Below, in pieces: positions 1,291-10,082 of a stretch of DNA of 64,000 nucleotides. Source of the DNA: Roseibacillus sp. (GTDB taxonomy: Bacteria; Verrucomicrobiota; Verrucomicrobiia; Verrucomicrobiales; Akkermansiaceae); contig JBPOGI010000004.1 of assembly GCA_051251855.1 (NCBI GenBank), forward strand, positions 192,001 through 256,000. Reading direction: 5' to 3'. The notes under the pieces are model-generated. The model was not told the origin of the DNA and ran no database searches. It worked only from the letters and a program-made list of their open reading frames with translations. The translations under genes and the position numbers were made by a program. Position 1 is the first letter of the stretch; the number at the start of each line of letters is the position of its first letter.

Positions 1291-2178
1291 GTGCATCGCA
1301 TCGCCACCATCGCCTTTGGCACCTTCACCCAGCTTGTACGGATGAAGGTCTTCTACTTTCTCGCCATTTTTGTGGTGCTGGCCATCGCGCTCAACTTCTT
1401 CCGCCTCCCCCACACCATGGGACCCGAGGCCGTCGCTGCTGAGGAGCTACGCCTTTGGAAGTCGGGCACCATCGGGTTGATGAAACTCTTTGCTATCATC
1501 TTCTCACTGGCCGCTACTGCACTGCTCATCCCCCGCGACCTTGAGGACCGTATCCTCTACACCATCCTCTGCAAACCCGTCCCCCGCCTCGACTACCTCA
1601 TCGGCAAACTTCTCGGCGTCCTCATGCTCACCTTCATCGCCCTTCTCGCGATGGACCTCCTGATGACCGCCGTTCTCCATCATCGCACCGGCATTGTGGA
1701 AGCCGAGCGGGTTGCCTTCTTGGAAAGCCGAAACTTCTCCAAAGCCGACATCGCCCTTGAGGTTGCCGAAGTCCGTCGCCATGGCCCCACTCTTTCGCTC
1801 CAATTTGGCATCTTGGGCATCTTTCTCGAAGCCGCCGTCATCGCTGCTGTTGCCCTCCTCATCTCCACCTTTAGTTCCTCTACCCTCTTCACCATCATCA
1901 GCACGATTATGGTCTACTTCATTGGCTTTTTCATGGGCCAAGCGCGTGAATTTTGGATGCAAACCACCAATCTCGGCGACTCCTTTGTTGGCCAAGCCGC
2001 CCTGCAACTCCTTTCCCTCATCTTCCCCGATCTCTCCATCTTTGGGCTCGCCGATGCCGCCATTGCCGGAACCGTCATCCCCGCGCTCACTGCCCTCAAA
2101 GTTTGTGGTCTCGCCCTCGCCTACCTCGTCACCTACACCCTTGTGTCTTGGTTCGTTTTTGCCGACAAAGAGTTTTAA
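1291..2178 (+). CDS. ABC-2 type transporter permease
   Basis: Multiple TM helices; DLEDRILYTILCKPVPRLDYLIGKLLG motif typical of ABC-2 permeases. Confidence 0.8.
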   Translation: MHRIATIAFGTFTQLVRMKVFYFLAIFVVLAIALNFFRLPHTMGPEAVAAEELRLWKSGTIGLMKLFAIIFSLAATALLIPRDLEDRILYTILCKPVPRLDYLIGKLLGVLMLTFIALLAMDLLMTAVLHHRTGIVEAERVAFLESRNFSKADIALEVAEVRRHGPTLSLQFGILGIFLEAAVIAAVALLISTFSSSTLFTIISTIMVYFIGFFMGQAREFWMQTTNLGDSFVGQAALQLLSLIFPDLSIFGLADAAIAGTVIPALTALKVCGLALAYLVTYTLVSWFVFADKEF

Positions 2179-2232
2179 CGTTCAGTCTTCAATGTTGGAC
2201 GTGAAACGTTCTCCTGCCTACCCTTCTCTCAA

Positions 2233-2396
2233 GGGAGTCGTTCAACGGCAAGACAGGGAATGGTGAAAACCAGCCCCGCTTCGGGGTTACCCCGAGGACT
2301 CAGCAAAACCGACCCATTCGACGCCGGGCTTAATCACGGTTCCACCGTGAGAGCGCCCGACGCAGGACCAGACAGGTTGCCGGTTGAACGACTCCC
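2233..2396 (+). ncRNA. Putative retron-type msr-msd ncRNA
   Basis: GGGAGTCGTTCAAC (2233-2246) pairs perfectly with GTTGAACGACTCCC (2383-2396), extended by GGCAA/TTGCC; internal hairpins TGGT-GAAA-ACCA, TCGGGG-TTA-CCCCGA, TCACGGT-TCC-ACCGTGA; lies immediately upstream of an RT. Confidence 0.7.
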
Positions 2397-2436
2397 ACTC
2401 CTTCTTCCTTTCCAAGAGCACCCCACCTGCGCCAAC

Positions 2437-3708
2437 GTGCCCGACGTGTCCTCGCAGCGTCAATGGCTTGAGAACTTCGCCACTCTTCTCCTCGAACGCG
2501 AGCGAAGCTTGGCAAGCTGGCAGGATCTCGCCACCGAGACCATCCCCGGCCCCCGACGGCGCTCCTTTCGGCTTCTTCTCGGAGAAGTCTGGGCTGCCAC
2601 TGACAAGACCCCTCTTCTCGAACACTGGCACCTCGCAAATATCCTTCAGGCCAACTCCCGCTTCAAACGATGGTGGGACAAAGGCCCTTGCCCGCTCCCT
2701 CCCGCACTCACCGCTGGCAATCCAACCGCCCAAGTCGACAACTCTGCTTGGGACCTCCCCGAAATCCCCACCCTCTCCTCACTCAACGATCTCATCGAAC
2801 TTCACCCCGACGACATGGGCTGGCTTCTCGGTCCCTCCCATCACTATCACCAAAAGTTGCTTCCCAAACGACGCGGCGGCCGACGACTGTTAGAATCTCC
2901 CAAACCCCTCCTCAAGCAAACGCAGCGAATCCTTCTTCGTCGCTTACTCGACCGCATCCCCCCCCACGAAGCCGCCACCGGATTCCGTCAAGACCATAGC
3001 ATCATCGACTTCGCCAAACCTCATACCGGAAAAGACGTCGTCCTCAAGATGGACCTTGCCCACTTCTTTCCCTCTCTCGGTCGCCCCCGAATCAAGCGCC
3101 TCTTTATGGCCCTCGGCTACCGTGAATCCGTGGCCTTCGCTCTCGCCAGCCTCTCCACCACTCGAAGCTCTTGCCCCCACTTCACCACCCCCGAGCGCAC
3201 TCTCTACAGTCGCTATCATCTCCCCCAAGGCGCGCCCACTTCTCCAGCCCTAGCCAACCTCGCCGCCTTCCGCCTCGACTGTCGTCTTGCAGGCTTGGCA
3301 AAAAAAGCAGGCGCAACCTACACCCGCTACGCCGACGACCTTCTCTTTTCAGGCGATCGAGACTTTACCCGCCAATGCCCACGCTTCCAAATTAAAGTCA
3401 TGGCCATCACTCTCGAAGAAGGCCTCGCCATCAATGCACGTAAAACACGCACAATGCACCGCAGCCAAAAACAATCCGCCGCAGGCCTCATCCTTAACTC
3501 GAAGCTCAACGCCCGCCGTACCGACTACGACCAACTCAAGGCTATTCTCCACAACTGCCGCCAACAAGGCCCCGCCTCCCAAAATCACCAAGCCCACCCC
3601 CACTTCGCAGCCCACTTGAAAGGACGCGTCGCCTGGATTGCCTCTCTCAACCCAGCTTGGGGTGAAAAGCTCCAGTCCACTTATTCCGCCATCGACTGGG
3701 AAAGTTGA
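2437..3708 (+). CDS. Retron-like reverse transcriptase
   Basis: PKRRGGRRLLESP, ATGFR, FAKPH, MDLAHFFPS, LPQGAPTSPALAN, YTRYADDLLFSG, INARKT, QSAAGLILN. The ORF-track start 2260 lies inside the ncRNA; in-frame GTG at 2437 or 2446 is more plausible. Confidence 0.92.
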   Translation: MPDVSSQRQWLENFATLLLERERSLASWQDLATETIPGPRRRSFRLLLGEVWAATDKTPLLEHWHLANILQANSRFKRWWDKGPCPLPPALTAGNPTAQVDNSAWDLPEIPTLSSLNDLIELHPDDMGWLLGPSHHYHQKLLPKRRGGRRLLESPKPLLKQTQRILLRRLLDRIPPHEAATGFRQDHSIIDFAKPHTGKDVVLKMDLAHFFPSLGRPRIKRLFMALGYRESVAFALASLSTTRSSCPHFTTPERTLYSRYHLPQGAPTSPALANLAAFRLDCRLAGLAKKAGATYTRYADDLLFSGDRDFTRQCPRFQIKVMAITLEEGLAINARKTRTMHRSQKQSAAGLILNSKLNARRTDYDQLKAILHNCRQQGPASQNHQAHPHFAAHLKGRVAWIASLNPAWGEKLQSTYSAIDWES

Positions 3709-4595
3709 TTTCCAAAGCCCCGGCCACCCTTCACACTCACGCCGTGAGCGATATCCCCGAACAGGAGAACCCCAACCCCCTCTTTGCGCTCGCAAAGCAA
3801 TACCCCTTCTTCGCACGCACCCCTCGTCGCCGTCGCATTGCCGCCAAGCTCGACCAAATCATCGGCCTTGCCGGTCTCAGCGCCATGCCTGCCAGCATCC
3901 CCATCGGCCATCGGAACCCTTATCAGGCTGGCCACCAATATTTGGACATCGCCATCGAGGGAACTGACGATTTTCTCGCCAAGATCCCCAAAACCGGCCC
4001 CACCCTCGTCGTCGCTAACCATCCCTATGGAGCACTCGACGCCCTCATCGCCTCTGACCTCACCCTCCGCGTCCGCCCCGATGCCCTCATCTTTGGCAAT
4101 GCCGTCCTCGTTCATCCCGTGCATGAAGAATGGCTACTTCCCCTCGAAATCCTCGACGAATCCTCCGCCGCACGCCGTCGCAACCTTGATAGCATGCGCC
4201 GCGCGCTCACCCACCTCCAGGCCGGCGGCTGTGTCCTCATCTTCCCCGCTGGCGAAGTCGAGCGCTGGCGCTGGCCTCGACTCCGCATCGAAGAAGGCGC
4301 TTGGACCGCCCACCTCGCCCGCCTCGCTCTCAAATCCAAAGCGACCATTCTCCCCCTCGCCTACCCGGGCGAAAACCCCCTCTGGTTTCACCTCCCTGGC
4401 GCGCTACATCCTACTCTTCGCCTCCTCGCTCTTCCCCGTGCCTTCCTTTCTCTGCGAGGAAGAACGATTCCCATCCGCACTGGCCAGCCCATCCCGATCG
4501 AAAGCCTCCCCTCCGACCCACACGCCCTCACCGAAGCTGTGCGCCAAGTCGTTCTTCGCCTCGCAGGAAGAGAAGATCAAAGCGACGGGAAATAA
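3705..4595 (+). CDS. Lysophospholipid/PlsC-type acyltransferase (OlsF N-terminal-domain-like)
   Basis: VVANHPYGALD (HxxxxD) and LIFPAGEV motifs; start could be GTG 3744. Confidence 0.82.
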   Translation: MISKAPATLHTHAVSDIPEQENPNPLFALAKQYPFFARTPRRRRIAAKLDQIIGLAGLSAMPASIPIGHRNPYQAGHQYLDIAIEGTDDFLAKIPKTGPTLVVANHPYGALDALIASDLTLRVRPDALIFGNAVLVHPVHEEWLLPLEILDESSAARRRNLDSMRRALTHLQAGGCVLIFPAGEVERWRWPRLRIEEGAWTAHLARLALKSKATILPLAYPGENPLWFHLPGALHPTLRLLALPRAFLSLRGRTIPIRTGQPIPIESLPSDPHALTEAVRQVVLRLAGREDQSDGK

Positions 4596-4637
4596 AATGG
4601 ACCCTTGGGCCCTCTCATGGGAAGAATAGCCCCGACG

Positions 4638-5147
4638 ATGAACGCACTCATTGAAGCCAATCTCCATTATATCGTTCAAGCAGAACGACTTCTGGCTCAA
4701 TTGACCGACGAGACGTTTTCTCAAGAATCGCCGGCCTTCTACCGTTCGACTATTGGAGGCCATCTCCGTCACTGCCTCGATCACTACGACTCCTTCCTCA
4801 ATGCCTTGCAGGACGGAAAAGTCGACTACGACGAGCGCATGCGACTTCCTGCCCTTGAAACCGAGACCGCCAGCGCCGCTGCGAAAGCAACCGAAATTCG
4901 CGAACGCTTAGAAATCGTCTCTGCAAAGGAAACCCCGGTAGGCCTGCTGGTCAAAATGGACTGCGGCATCGATAACACTGACTGGCAGCCCTCCACTCTT
5001 GGTCGCGAGCTGCAATTTCTCGTGAGCCACACCGTGCACCACTTTGCCATGATTGGTGGTATCTGCCGTGAACTCGGTATCGAACCCGAGAAAAACTTCG
5101 GCGTTGCCCCCTCGACCATTCGGCATCATGCCAACGTTTCGGCCTAA
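4638..5147 (+). CDS. DinB family protein
   Basis: STIGGHLRHCLDH, VDYDER, RELQFLVSHTVHH, FGVAPST; start chosen at ATG 4638 (ORF track 4605). Confidence 0.82.
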   Translation: MNALIEANLHYIVQAERLLAQLTDETFSQESPAFYRSTIGGHLRHCLDHYDSFLNALQDGKVDYDERMRLPALETETASAAAKATEIRERLEIVSAKETPVGLLVKMDCGIDNTDWQPSTLGRELQFLVSHTVHHFAMIGGICRELGIEPEKNFGVAPSTIRHHANVSA

Positions 5148-5148
5148 G

Positions 5149-6024
5149 ATGACCGCTACCGACTTAAGATCCGAAGTTCAAAACCTGGAAGCAAGCGCCC
5201 GCTTAGCCACCCAAGGAAACCTCGAAGTCTATCTCGCCACTGCCCAAGAAATTCCGAACGTCCTCCAAGAAATCGGACGCTTGCGCGAAATTTCCTTTCA
5301 AGCGGTCGGAGAAGGCACCGGACACGAAATCGACCTCGACCGCTTCGACGAACACTACCTTCACCTTTTTCTCTGGGACGGCGAAGAGCATCGCATCGCA
5401 GGGGCCTACCGGCTCGCACCCACTGACCAAATCATCGCCCAGCAAGGGCCCACCGGACTCTACTGCTCCACCCTCTTCGATTTCCAACCCGCCTTCCTCG
5501 AGCACCTCAATCCCGCCCTCGAACTCGGTCGCTCCTTCGTCACCCCGGCCTACCAAAAGTCCCTCGCCCCCTTACTCGCGCTCTGGAAAGGCATCGCCAC
5601 CTACGTCTCGCGTAACCCACTCTATCATCGCCTCTTCGGGCCCGTGAGTATCTCTCAAGACTACACCCCCCTCTCGCAAGATATCATCGTCAAATTCCTC
5701 CGAGAAAACCGATGGAACCGCGAACTGGGCCCTTTAGTCCGCCCCCTCAACCCCTTCCCCGGCAACCCCGAAATCTCGCCTCTGTTAGAAAGCATCGACC
5801 AAGTCTCCGCCAGAGTCTCGGAGTCCGAAGCCGATGGCAAAGGCATCCCCATCCTCCTCAAGCAATACCTCAAACTCAACGCCACCCTGTTAGAGTTCAA
5901 CTTGGATCCCTCTTTCTCTGACTGCCTCGACGCCTTGATCCTCGTCGACCTCCACGACGCACCTCCCGCAGTGCTCTCCCGTTACATGGGCAAAGAAGCC
6001 TACGCGAAATTCAAAAGGCAATAG
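5149..6024 (+). CDS. GNAT N-acyltransferase (OlsB / OlsF C-terminal-domain-like, 'putative hemolysin')
   Basis: EIGRLREISFQAVGEGTG, DLDRFD, IAGAYRL, LELGRSFV, LFGPVSIS, IPILLKQYLKLNA; ATG at 5149. Confidence 0.85.
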   Translation: MTATDLRSEVQNLEASARLATQGNLEVYLATAQEIPNVLQEIGRLREISFQAVGEGTGHEIDLDRFDEHYLHLFLWDGEEHRIAGAYRLAPTDQIIAQQGPTGLYCSTLFDFQPAFLEHLNPALELGRSFVTPAYQKSLAPLLALWKGIATYVSRNPLYHRLFGPVSISQDYTPLSQDIIVKFLRENRWNRELGPLVRPLNPFPGNPEISPLLESIDQVSARVSESEADGKGIPILLKQYLKLNATLLEFNLDPSFSDCLDALILVDLHDAPPAVLSRYMGKEAYAKFKRQ

Positions 6025-6054: not shown

Positions 6055-6258
6055 GTATTCTTTGACGCAGAGCCACAGAGGAGACGCAAAGTTCACGCAG
6101 AGATTGAATTGAGACCTGATTGAAAAAAAAGAATTTCAGGCCCTGAATTTCCCCCTAAAATCAGGCTCTTTTCTGAGCTCTTCCTAAAAAACTCAAACTC
6201 AGAATCCCGACTCTGCGTTCAGTCTCTGGGTCCTCTGTGGCTCTGCGTCGAAAAATAC
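6055..6258. repeat. MITE-like / long inverted-repeat intergenic element
   Basis: GACGCAGAGCCACAGAGGA (6064-6082) is the perfect reverse complement of 6231-6249; inner ACGCAGAG/CTCTGCGT (6095-6102/6211-6218); AT-rich centre. Confidence 0.65.
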
Positions 6259-6283
6259 TGCCCAAATCGCAAAAAAACTGATC

Positions 6284-7430: not shown

Positions 7431-10082
7431 ATGTCCGAAGACGCCTCACCTTTCGAACTTCTTCCCGCTGAGGAAGTTGAAAACCTCTTGCCTTCCTATA
7501 GCCAAATTTCTTTTCTCGCAAAAGGAGGCATGGCAGCCGTTTACCGTGGGGTGCAAACATCCCTGGAGCGCCCCGTCGCCATCAAAATGCTCCCAGCGGA
7601 ATTCGGGGCAGACGAGTCCTTCCGGCTCCGCTTTGTGGCAGAAGGTAAAGCGATGGCTCGCCTCAACCATCCCAACCTAGTCGGCATCTTCGATTTCGGA
7701 CAAGTGGATAACCTTCTCTACCTCGTTATGGAATTCGTGGAAGGGCAGACCCTGCACGAACATGCCTACGGCTCACCCATGGACGAGCTCGAAGCAGTTG
7801 ACCTTTGTCAAAAAGTCGCCGATGGCCTCGCCCATGCCCACGAGCACGGCATTCTCCATCGCGACATCAAGCCAGCCAACGTGCTCCTTGATAAAAACCT
7901 CAACCCCAAGCTCGGTGACTTCGGACTCGCCGAAGGAGACGAACGCGAAGAAGGCGATGACCTCGTCTTTGGCACCCCCGGCTACACCTCGCCTGAGGTC
8001 ATGGCAAATCCCGCCGCTGCCGACGAAAAGGCTGATATTTTTGCCATTGGTATCATGCTCTACGAGCTCATTACTACCACCCTGCCGGCAGACCCTTACC
8101 AGCCGCCATCCCGCGTTGCTAATACCGATCCTCGCATCGACCCCATCATCGCGACCGCTATACAACCTGACCCCAATCACCGCTACGCCTCTGCCAGCGA
8201 ACTCGCGGCGAGCTTGAAAAGCCTTCACGAGAAAATGAAGGCCGCTCCTCGCAAAAAGTTAGCCACCAAAGGCTCTTCAGGCAGCGCGGCCCGAACTCTC
8301 AAGGTCGACGCCCCCGCGCCTCCCAAAGATTTTCCCAACCCTGGGTCTGTCTTGGCTACCGGTGATTCCAATGGAGGCTCCGCGGCCCCGCCCCGCAGCC
8401 CCGCTCCCGCCATGGCAGGAGCAGCGCCCTCGAATCTCCCTTTGATTCGAAATCTCATTATTATTGGAATGCTCTGCGCAGCCATCGCCGTGGCATGGGA
8501 TGCACTCAAAGGCAAACAGGCGCGAATCGACAAAGAGAATCAGGTTCAGATCGAAAAAGCAGATCGCGAGAAAGCCAGGAAAGCCAAACTTGAAGCCGCT
8601 CGCCTCGCCAAGATGCAAGGCGGAGGCTCGCCCACAAACTCCGGCCAAGGATCCGCGACTGGCAAGACCAAGCCTACCGAACCTCACGTTCCCGAAGTCG
8701 AAGCACCCATCCCGCTCAGCCCTCGCGAGCAACTCGACGAACTCCAGTCTGCCCTGCAAGCTGGAGAGCGAGATCGCTTCCCCGAAGGCTCCAAGCAAAG
8801 AGGCACTGCTCGCTACTTCTTCATCAACGACGCACTCACTTGGTATGAAGCCATCGAATTCGCAGAAAGCTACGGTGGACACTTGGCAATGGCCCCCAAA
8901 GACAGCGACCTCAGCTGGTTAGCGAAAGAAATCCCGACCGACGACGATATCTGGCTCGGTGCAGGCGCCATCTCCCGCAGTGATTGGGAGTGGCTCGACG
9001 ACAGCATCGAGTTTGAACATAAAAAGCCTCGCACCAGCACCGGCACTGCCGCCATGGTAACAAATACCGGCTTCATCAGAGCGCGTGAGCCCTCCCTCAA
9101 ATTGCCCTTCTTCATTCAGTGGAACGACAACGGCAAGCGACTCGGCAGCCGAGAAATAGACTTCTTACAACTGTCGGAGACCCTCACTACTTCCGCGCCG
9201 TCTTGGCCTCCTGGCGTCATCTCCTACGAAGAGCGCCGCTACCTCATTCTCGGACGCTCTTTGACTCAATCCGAAGCCGCTGCCATCGCCGCCAGTGCCG
9301 GAGGAGCCCTCGCTGTCCCCTCCAACGAACTTGAAGCCTCCTTCCTCATGGAAGCGGTCACCAAATCTGGTCTTTCCGCCCTCTGGCTGGGAGGAGAAAA
9401 GCGAGGCGATGCATGGGCTTGGAGCACTAACGAGCCCTGGGAATTCGCACGCTGGAATGATGGCTATCCTCTTCCTGCAGAAAAGGCCGTCGCCCTCCAA
9501 ACGGTCGGCAAGGGATGGATCAACACCGATCCGTATCAAGATGCGCCCGGCTTCATCATCGAGTGGTCCGACGACGCCAAAAACGCTCCCGAATCCGAAG
9601 TTGCTCAGAACGATGGCCTCGCCGCCCTGAATACTCTTCGCGCCAAGGCGAAACGGTTCCTTGCGACCGAACAAAAGAAAACGCTCAAGGTCACCAAAGA
9701 CAACTACTTAGCCCAAGGCATGGCCATGAGACAAATGTTGCGAAACATCGCCAAAGAAGACGCCAAGGTCATTGGAGCTCGTTACGAGAAGTATCTCGCA
9801 GCCTCTGCGGGAAGTCGTCTTCTCGACCCCGCCGACTCTCCCATTGCAGGAGCCAATGATGCCGTTAAAATTCTCACCCGTTACTTTGAGATTCAAAGCG
9901 AGGCTGAGGCGAAACTCGTGAGCACCGCAGCTAAGGTCAGAATCAGCTACCACAAGGAGATCGACGACCTGATCACGGATGCAAAAGCCAAAGGACTCGC
10001 GTCCCAAGTCTCTCCCATGGAAAAAGAAAAAGTCGCTACTGGCACCTCAGGCGCGAGCTTCCTCCGACATTTGGGGCTCTAA
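7431..10082 (+). CDS. Hanks-type Ser/Thr kinase with TM segment and two C-type-lectin-like domains
   Basis: KGGMAAVY, VAIKML, HRDIKPAN, DFG, GTPGY; TM helix; LTWYEA..GGHLA..IWLG..WEW and GGALA..LWLGG..WAWS. Confidence 0.88.
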   Translation: MSEDASPFELLPAEEVENLLPSYSQISFLAKGGMAAVYRGVQTSLERPVAIKMLPAEFGADESFRLRFVAEGKAMARLNHPNLVGIFDFGQVDNLLYLVMEFVEGQTLHEHAYGSPMDELEAVDLCQKVADGLAHAHEHGILHRDIKPANVLLDKNLNPKLGDFGLAEGDEREEGDDLVFGTPGYTSPEVMANPAAADEKADIFAIGIMLYELITTTLPADPYQPPSRVANTDPRIDPIIATAIQPDPNHRYASASELAASLKSLHEKMKAAPRKKLATKGSSGSAARTLKVDAPAPPKDFPNPGSVLATGDSNGGSAAPPRSPAPAMAGAAPSNLPLIRNLIIIGMLCAAIAVAWDALKGKQARIDKENQVQIEKADREKARKAKLEAARLAKMQGGGSPTNSGQGSATGKTKPTEPHVPEVEAPIPLSPREQLDELQSALQAGERDRFPEGSKQRGTARYFFINDALTWYEAIEFAESYGGHLAMAPKDSDLSWLAKEIPTDDDIWLGAGAISRSDWEWLDDSIEFEHKKPRTSTGTAAMVTNTGFIRAREPSLKLPFFIQWNDNGKRLGSREIDFLQLSETLTTSAPSWPPGVISYEERRYLILGRSLTQSEAAAIAASAGGALAVPSNELEASFLMEAVTKSGLSALWLGGEKRGDAWAWSTNEPWEFARWNDGYPLPAEKAVALQTVGKGWINTDPYQDAPGFIIEWSDDAKNAPESEVAQNDGLAALNTLRAKAKRFLATEQKKTLKVTKDNYLAQGMAMRQMLRNIAKEDAKVIGARYEKYLAASAGSRLLDPADSPIAGANDAVKILTRYFEIQSEAEAKLVSTAAKVRISYHKEIDDLITDAKAKGLASQVSPMEKEKVATGTSGASFLRHLGL

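Follow-up and report, generated by a model that had tools for sequence, protein, structure and literature searches.

The locus considered here, a reverse transcriptase (RT) gene preceded by a structured RNA near one end of the window (the whole 64,000-nucleotide stretch of Roseibacillus sp. DNA that was analysed), raises two questions: to which class of RT-ncRNA system does it belong, and what might such a unit do with no recognisable effector beside it? The first-pass annotation had described it as a divergent, retron-like, and apparently stand-alone system. The evidence given here indicates that it is probably a two-part retron of RT clade 11 (the 'outgroup' of PADLOC) in a Verrucomicrobiota genome.

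The RNA is bounded by a 14-bp perfect inverted repeat on the forward strand (2233-2246/2383-2396), to which the predicted fold adds five pairs (2247-2251 with 2377-2381, G2382 being bulged), giving a closing stem of 19 pairs with G2252 as the first unpaired base after the 5′ arm. The repeat, its 5-bp extension, the hairpins, and the FAKPH, YADD, and AAG motifs of the RT had all been read correctly in the first-pass annotation. Folding of 2225-2405 yields −82.2 kcal/mol (z = −5.14), a value that 0 of 200 shuffles equalled or bettered, and among 30 shuffled windows, two produced a 14-bp repeat at 60-300-nt spacing. The real window contains one further repeat of this type, at 6064-6249; it is a 19-bp perfect inverted repeat (6064-6082/6231-6249, ~150 nt apart) in the intergenic region 6055-6260, whose arms match about eight other sites in the genome at 81-91% and which is probably a small dispersed repeat (REP/MITE-like).

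Repeat, fold, covariation, and a covariance model together define an msr-msd ncRNA at 2233..2396 on the forward strand, closed by an a1/a2 stem. The 5′ arm (2233..2251) ends in a conserved CAA and is followed by the predicted branching (priming) G at 2252, in the context AAG-A where the family consensus is AAG-C. The first msr hairpin (2257..2276) carries a GAAA loop, with TGGT-GAAA-ACCA at 2261-2272; it varies in length and sequence among relatives, and the loop is not conserved. The second msr hairpin (2279..2297), absent from the first-pass annotation, is the most conserved element of the RNA. It pairs as an 8-bp stem with a 3-nt loop (GGGG-NUA-CCCC), the same shape as the stem bound by Ec86 RT via region Y (PMC6868368), and by analogy with Ec86 and Ec73 is the predicted binding site of RT region Y. 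The msd hairpin (2322..2362), supported by covariation and fold, includes CGGGC 2325-2329 / GCCCG 2355-2359 and TCACGGT-TCC-ACCGTGA (2334-2350). It is the predicted template and would become the msDNA hairpin; it lies inside the template region originally proposed (2320-2380), and its complement folds as DNA with a z of −2.7. A conserved GAC..G (2371..2376) ends in G2376, which stands opposite G2252 and at which templating is predicted to begin, and the 3′ arm (2377..2396) completes the structure. An Rfam search returned two chance matches only and no family for the RNA, and a sigma-70 promoter scan of 2100-2500 found none. A rise in sequencing depth over 2272-2405 in two DNA runs was discarded as an msDNA signal because the same rise occurs at other contig breaks.

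Conservation of the RNA was assessed at 93 non-redundant loci, comprising 14 from 151 genomes of the host family and 79 from the best 80 of at least 598 genome matches (one duplicate was dropped), which belong to Verrucomicrobiota, Planctomycetota, Acidobacteriota, and Burkholderiaceae. A GGGG-N-ACCCC hairpin is located 60-210 nt upstream of the RT in 86 of them. The RNA alignment consists of 74 of 87 extracted regions (2 near-duplicates and 11 others were left out), and its rows were selected by the GGGG hairpin, so that the invariance of this hairpin is partly due to selection while other positions are unaffected. In the consensus of 26 pairs, 95% of cells are paired and 18 pairs show changes in both partners; none of 500 shuffles reached any of the measures, and slid controls dropped to 36-50% paired. 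Two-sided changes are found in 7 of 9 modelled pairs of the closing stem, in 9 of 9 of the msd hairpin, and in 2 pairs of the stem 2279-2297, in which 98.8% of cells are paired. With regard to single positions, G2371 is present in all 74 RNAs and G2376 in 73. Two candidate primers had been named at first, of which G2252 stands, being unpaired and G in 73 of the 74 RNAs, whereas G2247 is rejected because this position is G in 13 of 74 and base-paired. AA comes before position 2252, and the base after it is C in 62 of the 74 RNAs (A at this locus); AGC is the known retron priming context according to PMC6868368.

The covariance model recovers all 11 held-out regions and six of the seven loci where the motif was not in range (a contig end cuts the seventh), and motif and model together detect the RNA upstream of the RT at 92 of the 93 loci. 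In the window, which belongs to the training set, it has a single match (2223-2411), and on nine type XIII-like loci it gave none better than E 0.14. A covarying inverted repeat is thus found upstream of homologues, and the original view of a retron-type RT with a cognate msr-msd RNA holds. Two loci differ in arrangement: a Bryobacterales locus (L098:2189-2368) has, 1.3 kb upstream of its complete retron RNA, a second, partial one (msr and msd start, 59 bits), and at another (L025:3189-3376) the RNA is located ~310 nt farther from the RT than elsewhere.

The RT gene occupies 2446..3708 on the forward strand and encodes a protein of ~420 aa with FAKPH at 3010-3024 (region X), YADD at 3328-3339, and AAG at 3478-3486 (region Y). 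Its start is placed by homology at GTG 2446, 50 nt past the inverted repeat, GTG 2437 being possible. No stop interrupts the reading frame between ATG 2260 and that start, and the protein is on public record with 481 aa, which bears out the warning that automated calling from 2260 would hide the RNA. The relatives are of ~420 aa (419-454 aa for the nearest), start in register with GTG 2446, and carry in-frame stops 7-22 codons above that start, so the 482-aa protein from ATG 2260 was rejected. The closest named relatives are from Roseibacillus (62% identity), along with Luteolibacter/Haloferula proteins. The AlphaFold model of the RT has a pLDDT of 94, and its closest fold is that of retron Ec86 (E 1e-20, target TM 0.81).

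Among the PADLOC profiles, the RT scores 411 bits on RT_other, 389 on RT_outgroup, and 303 on RT_XIII. Gordonia aichiensis, Nakamurella lactea, and Nocardia thailandica are listed as clade 11 in Table 1 of PMC10849725, and the RTs named for these three species also score best on RT_other and RT_outgroup (527-592 bits). In a quick tree of 53 rows (SH-aLRT without bootstrap, references matched by species name and not by accession), the query and the three actinobacterial references fall into a 37-row clade with an SH-aLRT of 100, from which 8 type XIII-like RTs and 8 RTs of other retrons are separate. The RT therefore groups with clade-11 RTs and not outside retron-like clades; the references form an actinobacterial subclade, and the query belongs to a verrucomicrobial one.

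The variant motifs are characteristic of this lineage. Across 94 aligned RTs, the first position of region X is F in 87 and N in none, and region Y reads AAG in 57, LAG in 23, and VTG in none; the references have FGWPH, FAAPH, and FGAPH in region X and LAG, LAS, and LAG in region Y. Since the references share the changes and neither the N nor VTG occurs among the 94, FAKPH and AAG are regarded as lineage markers. The region X His and the region Y Gly, given in PMC7736814 as the most conserved residues of retron RTs, are each retained in 93 of the 94, the query being aligned to the Ec86 motifs. The divergence implied by the first-pass annotation is not sustained, because F[AV]xPH and [AL]AG are normal in a large lineage, namely the published clade 11, which PMC7736814 describes as stand-alone (msr-msd)-RT cassettes with no effector and an open role. 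The retron is a further member of this catalogued effector-less lineage, whose RT relatives number in the thousands, and not a divergent new system. Judging from the host taxa listed in PMC13712802, its RNA is most likely of the A type (clade11-A/OutgroupA); none of 12 contig prefixes from the loci studied here was matched in the SPIRE table of that paper. Several actinobacterial clade-11 RTs (P0122, P0123, P0148, P0169, and P0189) have YGDD in place of YADD.

The clade-11 cassettes of PMC7736814 (clade11-A/OutgroupA and clade11-B/OutgroupB in PMC13712802; RT_outgroup PDLC03740 and RT_other PDLC02949) are in the same clade as the query, give the best HMMs, and share with it the ~420-aa RT, a ~100-aa N-terminal extension, F[AG]xPH and LA[GS]-type motifs, an upstream msr-msd, the lack of an associated gene, and the host phyla. 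The query differs from the references in belonging to the Verrucomicrobia subclade, in having AAG and not LAG, and in its priming context, AGA and not AGC; its N-terminal domain is not clearly homologous to that of actinobacterial clade 11. Type XIII retrons (clade 10; Mx162, Sa163) have the next-best HMM (303 bits), a long N-terminal extension, and members in the same bacterial family (L015-L022), but NAxxH and VTG are retained in them, SWIM/ARM genes accompany them as partners, their RNA is a different one, and they form a separate clade. Retron-Eco1 (Ec86), the best structural match, shares the a1/a2 stem, the priming G, the 8-bp/3-nt-loop stem, and the msd hairpin; compared with Ec86 and tripartite retrons, the query (27% identity) lacks an effector gene, NAxxH, and VTG and carries an N-terminal domain in addition. 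Retron-Eco5 (Ec107)-like orphan retrons (clade 2) have the same two-part layout without an effector, although their RT clade is different (176 bits on its HMM) and the RT model is shorter there (307 positions). The general features of retrons are thus present (an a1/a2-closed RNA, an unpaired G, one to three msr hairpins with one long msd hairpin, and a YADD RT), whereas the adjacent or fused known effector and the literal NAxxH and VTG of tripartite defence retrons (types I-XIII) are absent.

The limits of the unit can be drawn from its congeners. According to annotation and congeners, an ABC-2-type permease gene (1291..2178, + strand) and a lyso-lipid acyltransferase gene (3744..4595, + strand), the latter followed by a DinB-like gene and a GNAT N-acyltransferase gene, flank the retron and lie outside it. 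All five congeners tested have the permease, and in four of them no RT of this type was matched. In three congeners it is this permease gene that precedes the retron, and two of these also have the same acyltransferase downstream; in congener G061 (90% complete, no RT match) the acyltransferase gene begins ~60 nt after the permease gene. This empty site defines the unit as 2179-3743, holding RNA and RT only: a cassette of ~1.5 kb that is present or absent as a whole, in which 54 nt precede the RNA and 35 nt follow the RT. The permease, acyltransferase, DinB-like, and GNAT genes were dismissed as effectors because they are resident, their flanks adjoining without the retron in G061. As an aside, an OlsF-like amino-lipid synthase is split in the region 3744-6024: its O-acyltransferase half and its GNAT N-acyltransferase half are encoded by separate genes, between which the DinB-like gene lies.

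A search for partners over 4,197 stop-to-stop ORFs of at least 70 codons from the 93 loci (flanks of ~1.5 kb for 14 loci and up to 4 kb for the rest) revealed no recurrent gene. The large ORF clusters consist of spurious frames that overlap the RNA or the RT (generic histidine kinases are linked into one of them), and no other real gene occurs in more than five loci. Together with the empty site, this agrees with the proposal of a stand-alone system. Among 27 neighbouring ORFs (~32 kb), PADLOC detected no defence gene except a Ser/Thr kinase match; this kinase (7431-10082, PD-T4-6 matches) was set aside as a defence partner because its kinase domain is generic and it is 3.7 kb away. Pfam gave no match for three long upstream ORFs, whose frames may be wrong.

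Established retron chemistry suggests how the locus would operate. RNA and RT would be made on one transcript, possibly with read-through from the permease gene. The RT thumb (region Y, from AAG) would grip the 8-bp/3-nt-loop stem at 2279-2297, the 2′-OH of G2252 would prime, and copying would start at G2376, run back through the hairpin 2322-2362, and halt before the msr stem at about 2298-2310. The expected product is a branched msDNA of ~70-80 nt that would remain bound to the RT. This whole chain, from co-transcription to the branched msDNA, is very probable by analogy with characterised retrons. In PMC10849725, RT-DNA output is given as intermediate for clades other than 2, 9, 10, 3, and 4, and clade 11 does not appear there among the non-producers; nine clade-11 members were listed with RT-DNA vectors, and two were taken to editing tests that favoured producers.

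With regard to the role, the RT-RNA-msDNA particle may sense phage or DNA-damage proteins acting on the msDNA hairpin, and the signal may be passed via the N-terminal helical domain, directly or to a host partner encoded elsewhere. Such a sensor of phage or stress, signalling through the N-terminal domain or a partner in trans, is put forward tentatively, at somewhat below even chances. Against it stand the lack of a defence gene among the 27 neighbouring ORFs beyond the generic kinase match, the occupation of the same site in four species, the absence of close RT relatives from the phage collection (0, the best being 26-36% identical), and the lack of a catalytic-looking invariant residue in the N-terminal domain. 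Plasmid occurrence is rare (six records of this RT type). The literature searches brought up no study that tests a clade-11 retron for function or defence, and the role of orphan retrons is stated as an open question in PMC7736814.

The same biochemistry could also serve no defence at all, the retron being either a domesticated msDNA unit serving a cellular or regulatory function or a passenger that is close to neutral and retained by weak selection. The retron lies among housekeeping genes, is present in a single copy in the genome, and occupies the same site in four congeners; domestication is raised for clade 11 in PMC7736814. Comparison with three congeners gave a dN of 0.32-0.38 and a dS of 1.66-1.77 (near saturation) for the RT, hence a dN/dS of ~0.2, and the permease dS of 1.2-1.6 is similar; these values point to long residence of the retron under purifying selection. 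However, the distribution is patchy (14 genomes out of 151 in the family and, within the genus, 4 out of 8 besides this one), the retron is absent at the G061 site, and the neighbourhoods across phyla are unrelated in the 93 loci. Accessory defence genes typically come and go in this way. A role outside defence is possible but on the doubtful side.

A third reading assigns the output to the RT itself. The N-terminal ~80 aa (2446..2690, + strand) form a domain of no known family that, modelled alone, folds into five helices with a pLDDT of 85, and matches to solved retron RTs begin near query residue 107-143, beyond this domain. All 26 of the family RTs examined retain it (E < 1e-6 for 25); it is not found in type XIII or other retrons and is only doubtfully present in actinobacterial clade 11. 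Were it a toxic effector held inactive by msDNA, the locus would be a one-gene defence retron, and known single-gene retrons do have fused effectors (PMC7736814). On the other hand, the fused effectors known so far are C-terminal, and untruncated clade-11 RTs were expressed in Escherichia coli in the census of PMC10849725. The domain is net basic (median +7), which fits nucleic-acid binding; it has no invariant residue; and it had no match in Pfam, PDB sequences, or Foldseek, structure comparison giving a best Z of 6.0 with VIA and 0.76 in the ESM Atlas, which does not in itself make the fold a new one. A toxic domain at this locus is therefore improbable. The broader proposition, that the clade-11 retrons of PVC, Acidobacteria, and Burkholderia carry in this domain either an effector of their own or a module to which a host toxin docks, is unlikely too; if true, they would be minimal one-gene defence retrons with an N-terminal output.

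An RT-ncRNA class apart from the catalogued retrons, or a relative of DRT, UG, or group II RTs, is very unlikely. The missing NAxxH and VTG, the missing Rfam family, and scores under the NCBIfam retron cut-offs could be cited for it, as could the N-terminal profile, which detects 1 of 120 actinobacterial clade-11 N-termini (HHalign probability 6%), and the covariance model, which has no match at a Tsukamurella locus. However, the clade-11 references fall in the same clade with the same motif changes, and the model does match a Burkholderia locus and the RNA of an actinobacterial Dietzia plasmid locus (39.6 bits). Scores outside retrons are low (Drt2 42 bits against a cut-off of 390, group II 39 against 300, Drt3a 21), DRT and group II RTs all rank below retrons in the fold search, and Bryobacterales, Paraburkholderia, Planctomycetaceae, and Verrucomicrobiales are already placed under clade 11-A or B, with low or no novelty, in PMC13712802. 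A decayed retron that has lost its effector and is now inactive, which the lack of an effector and the changed region X and Y motifs might suggest, is hardly credible given the intact frame, the dN/dS of ~0.2, the compensatory RNA changes, and thousands of relatives with the same two-part layout in those examined.

As a clade-11 retron, the locus offers a test case with exact limits from the empty site, a priming G and template start set by conservation, and a separable N-terminal domain, and many other clade-11 members are equally good in this respect. More generally, filters based on NAxxH and VTG miss a large retron lineage, and gene callers can hide its RNA. Three genomes of the family (G085, G150, and G011) contain a clade-11 RT (L006, L009, and L014) together with a type XIII-like RT (L021, L020, and L022, respectively).
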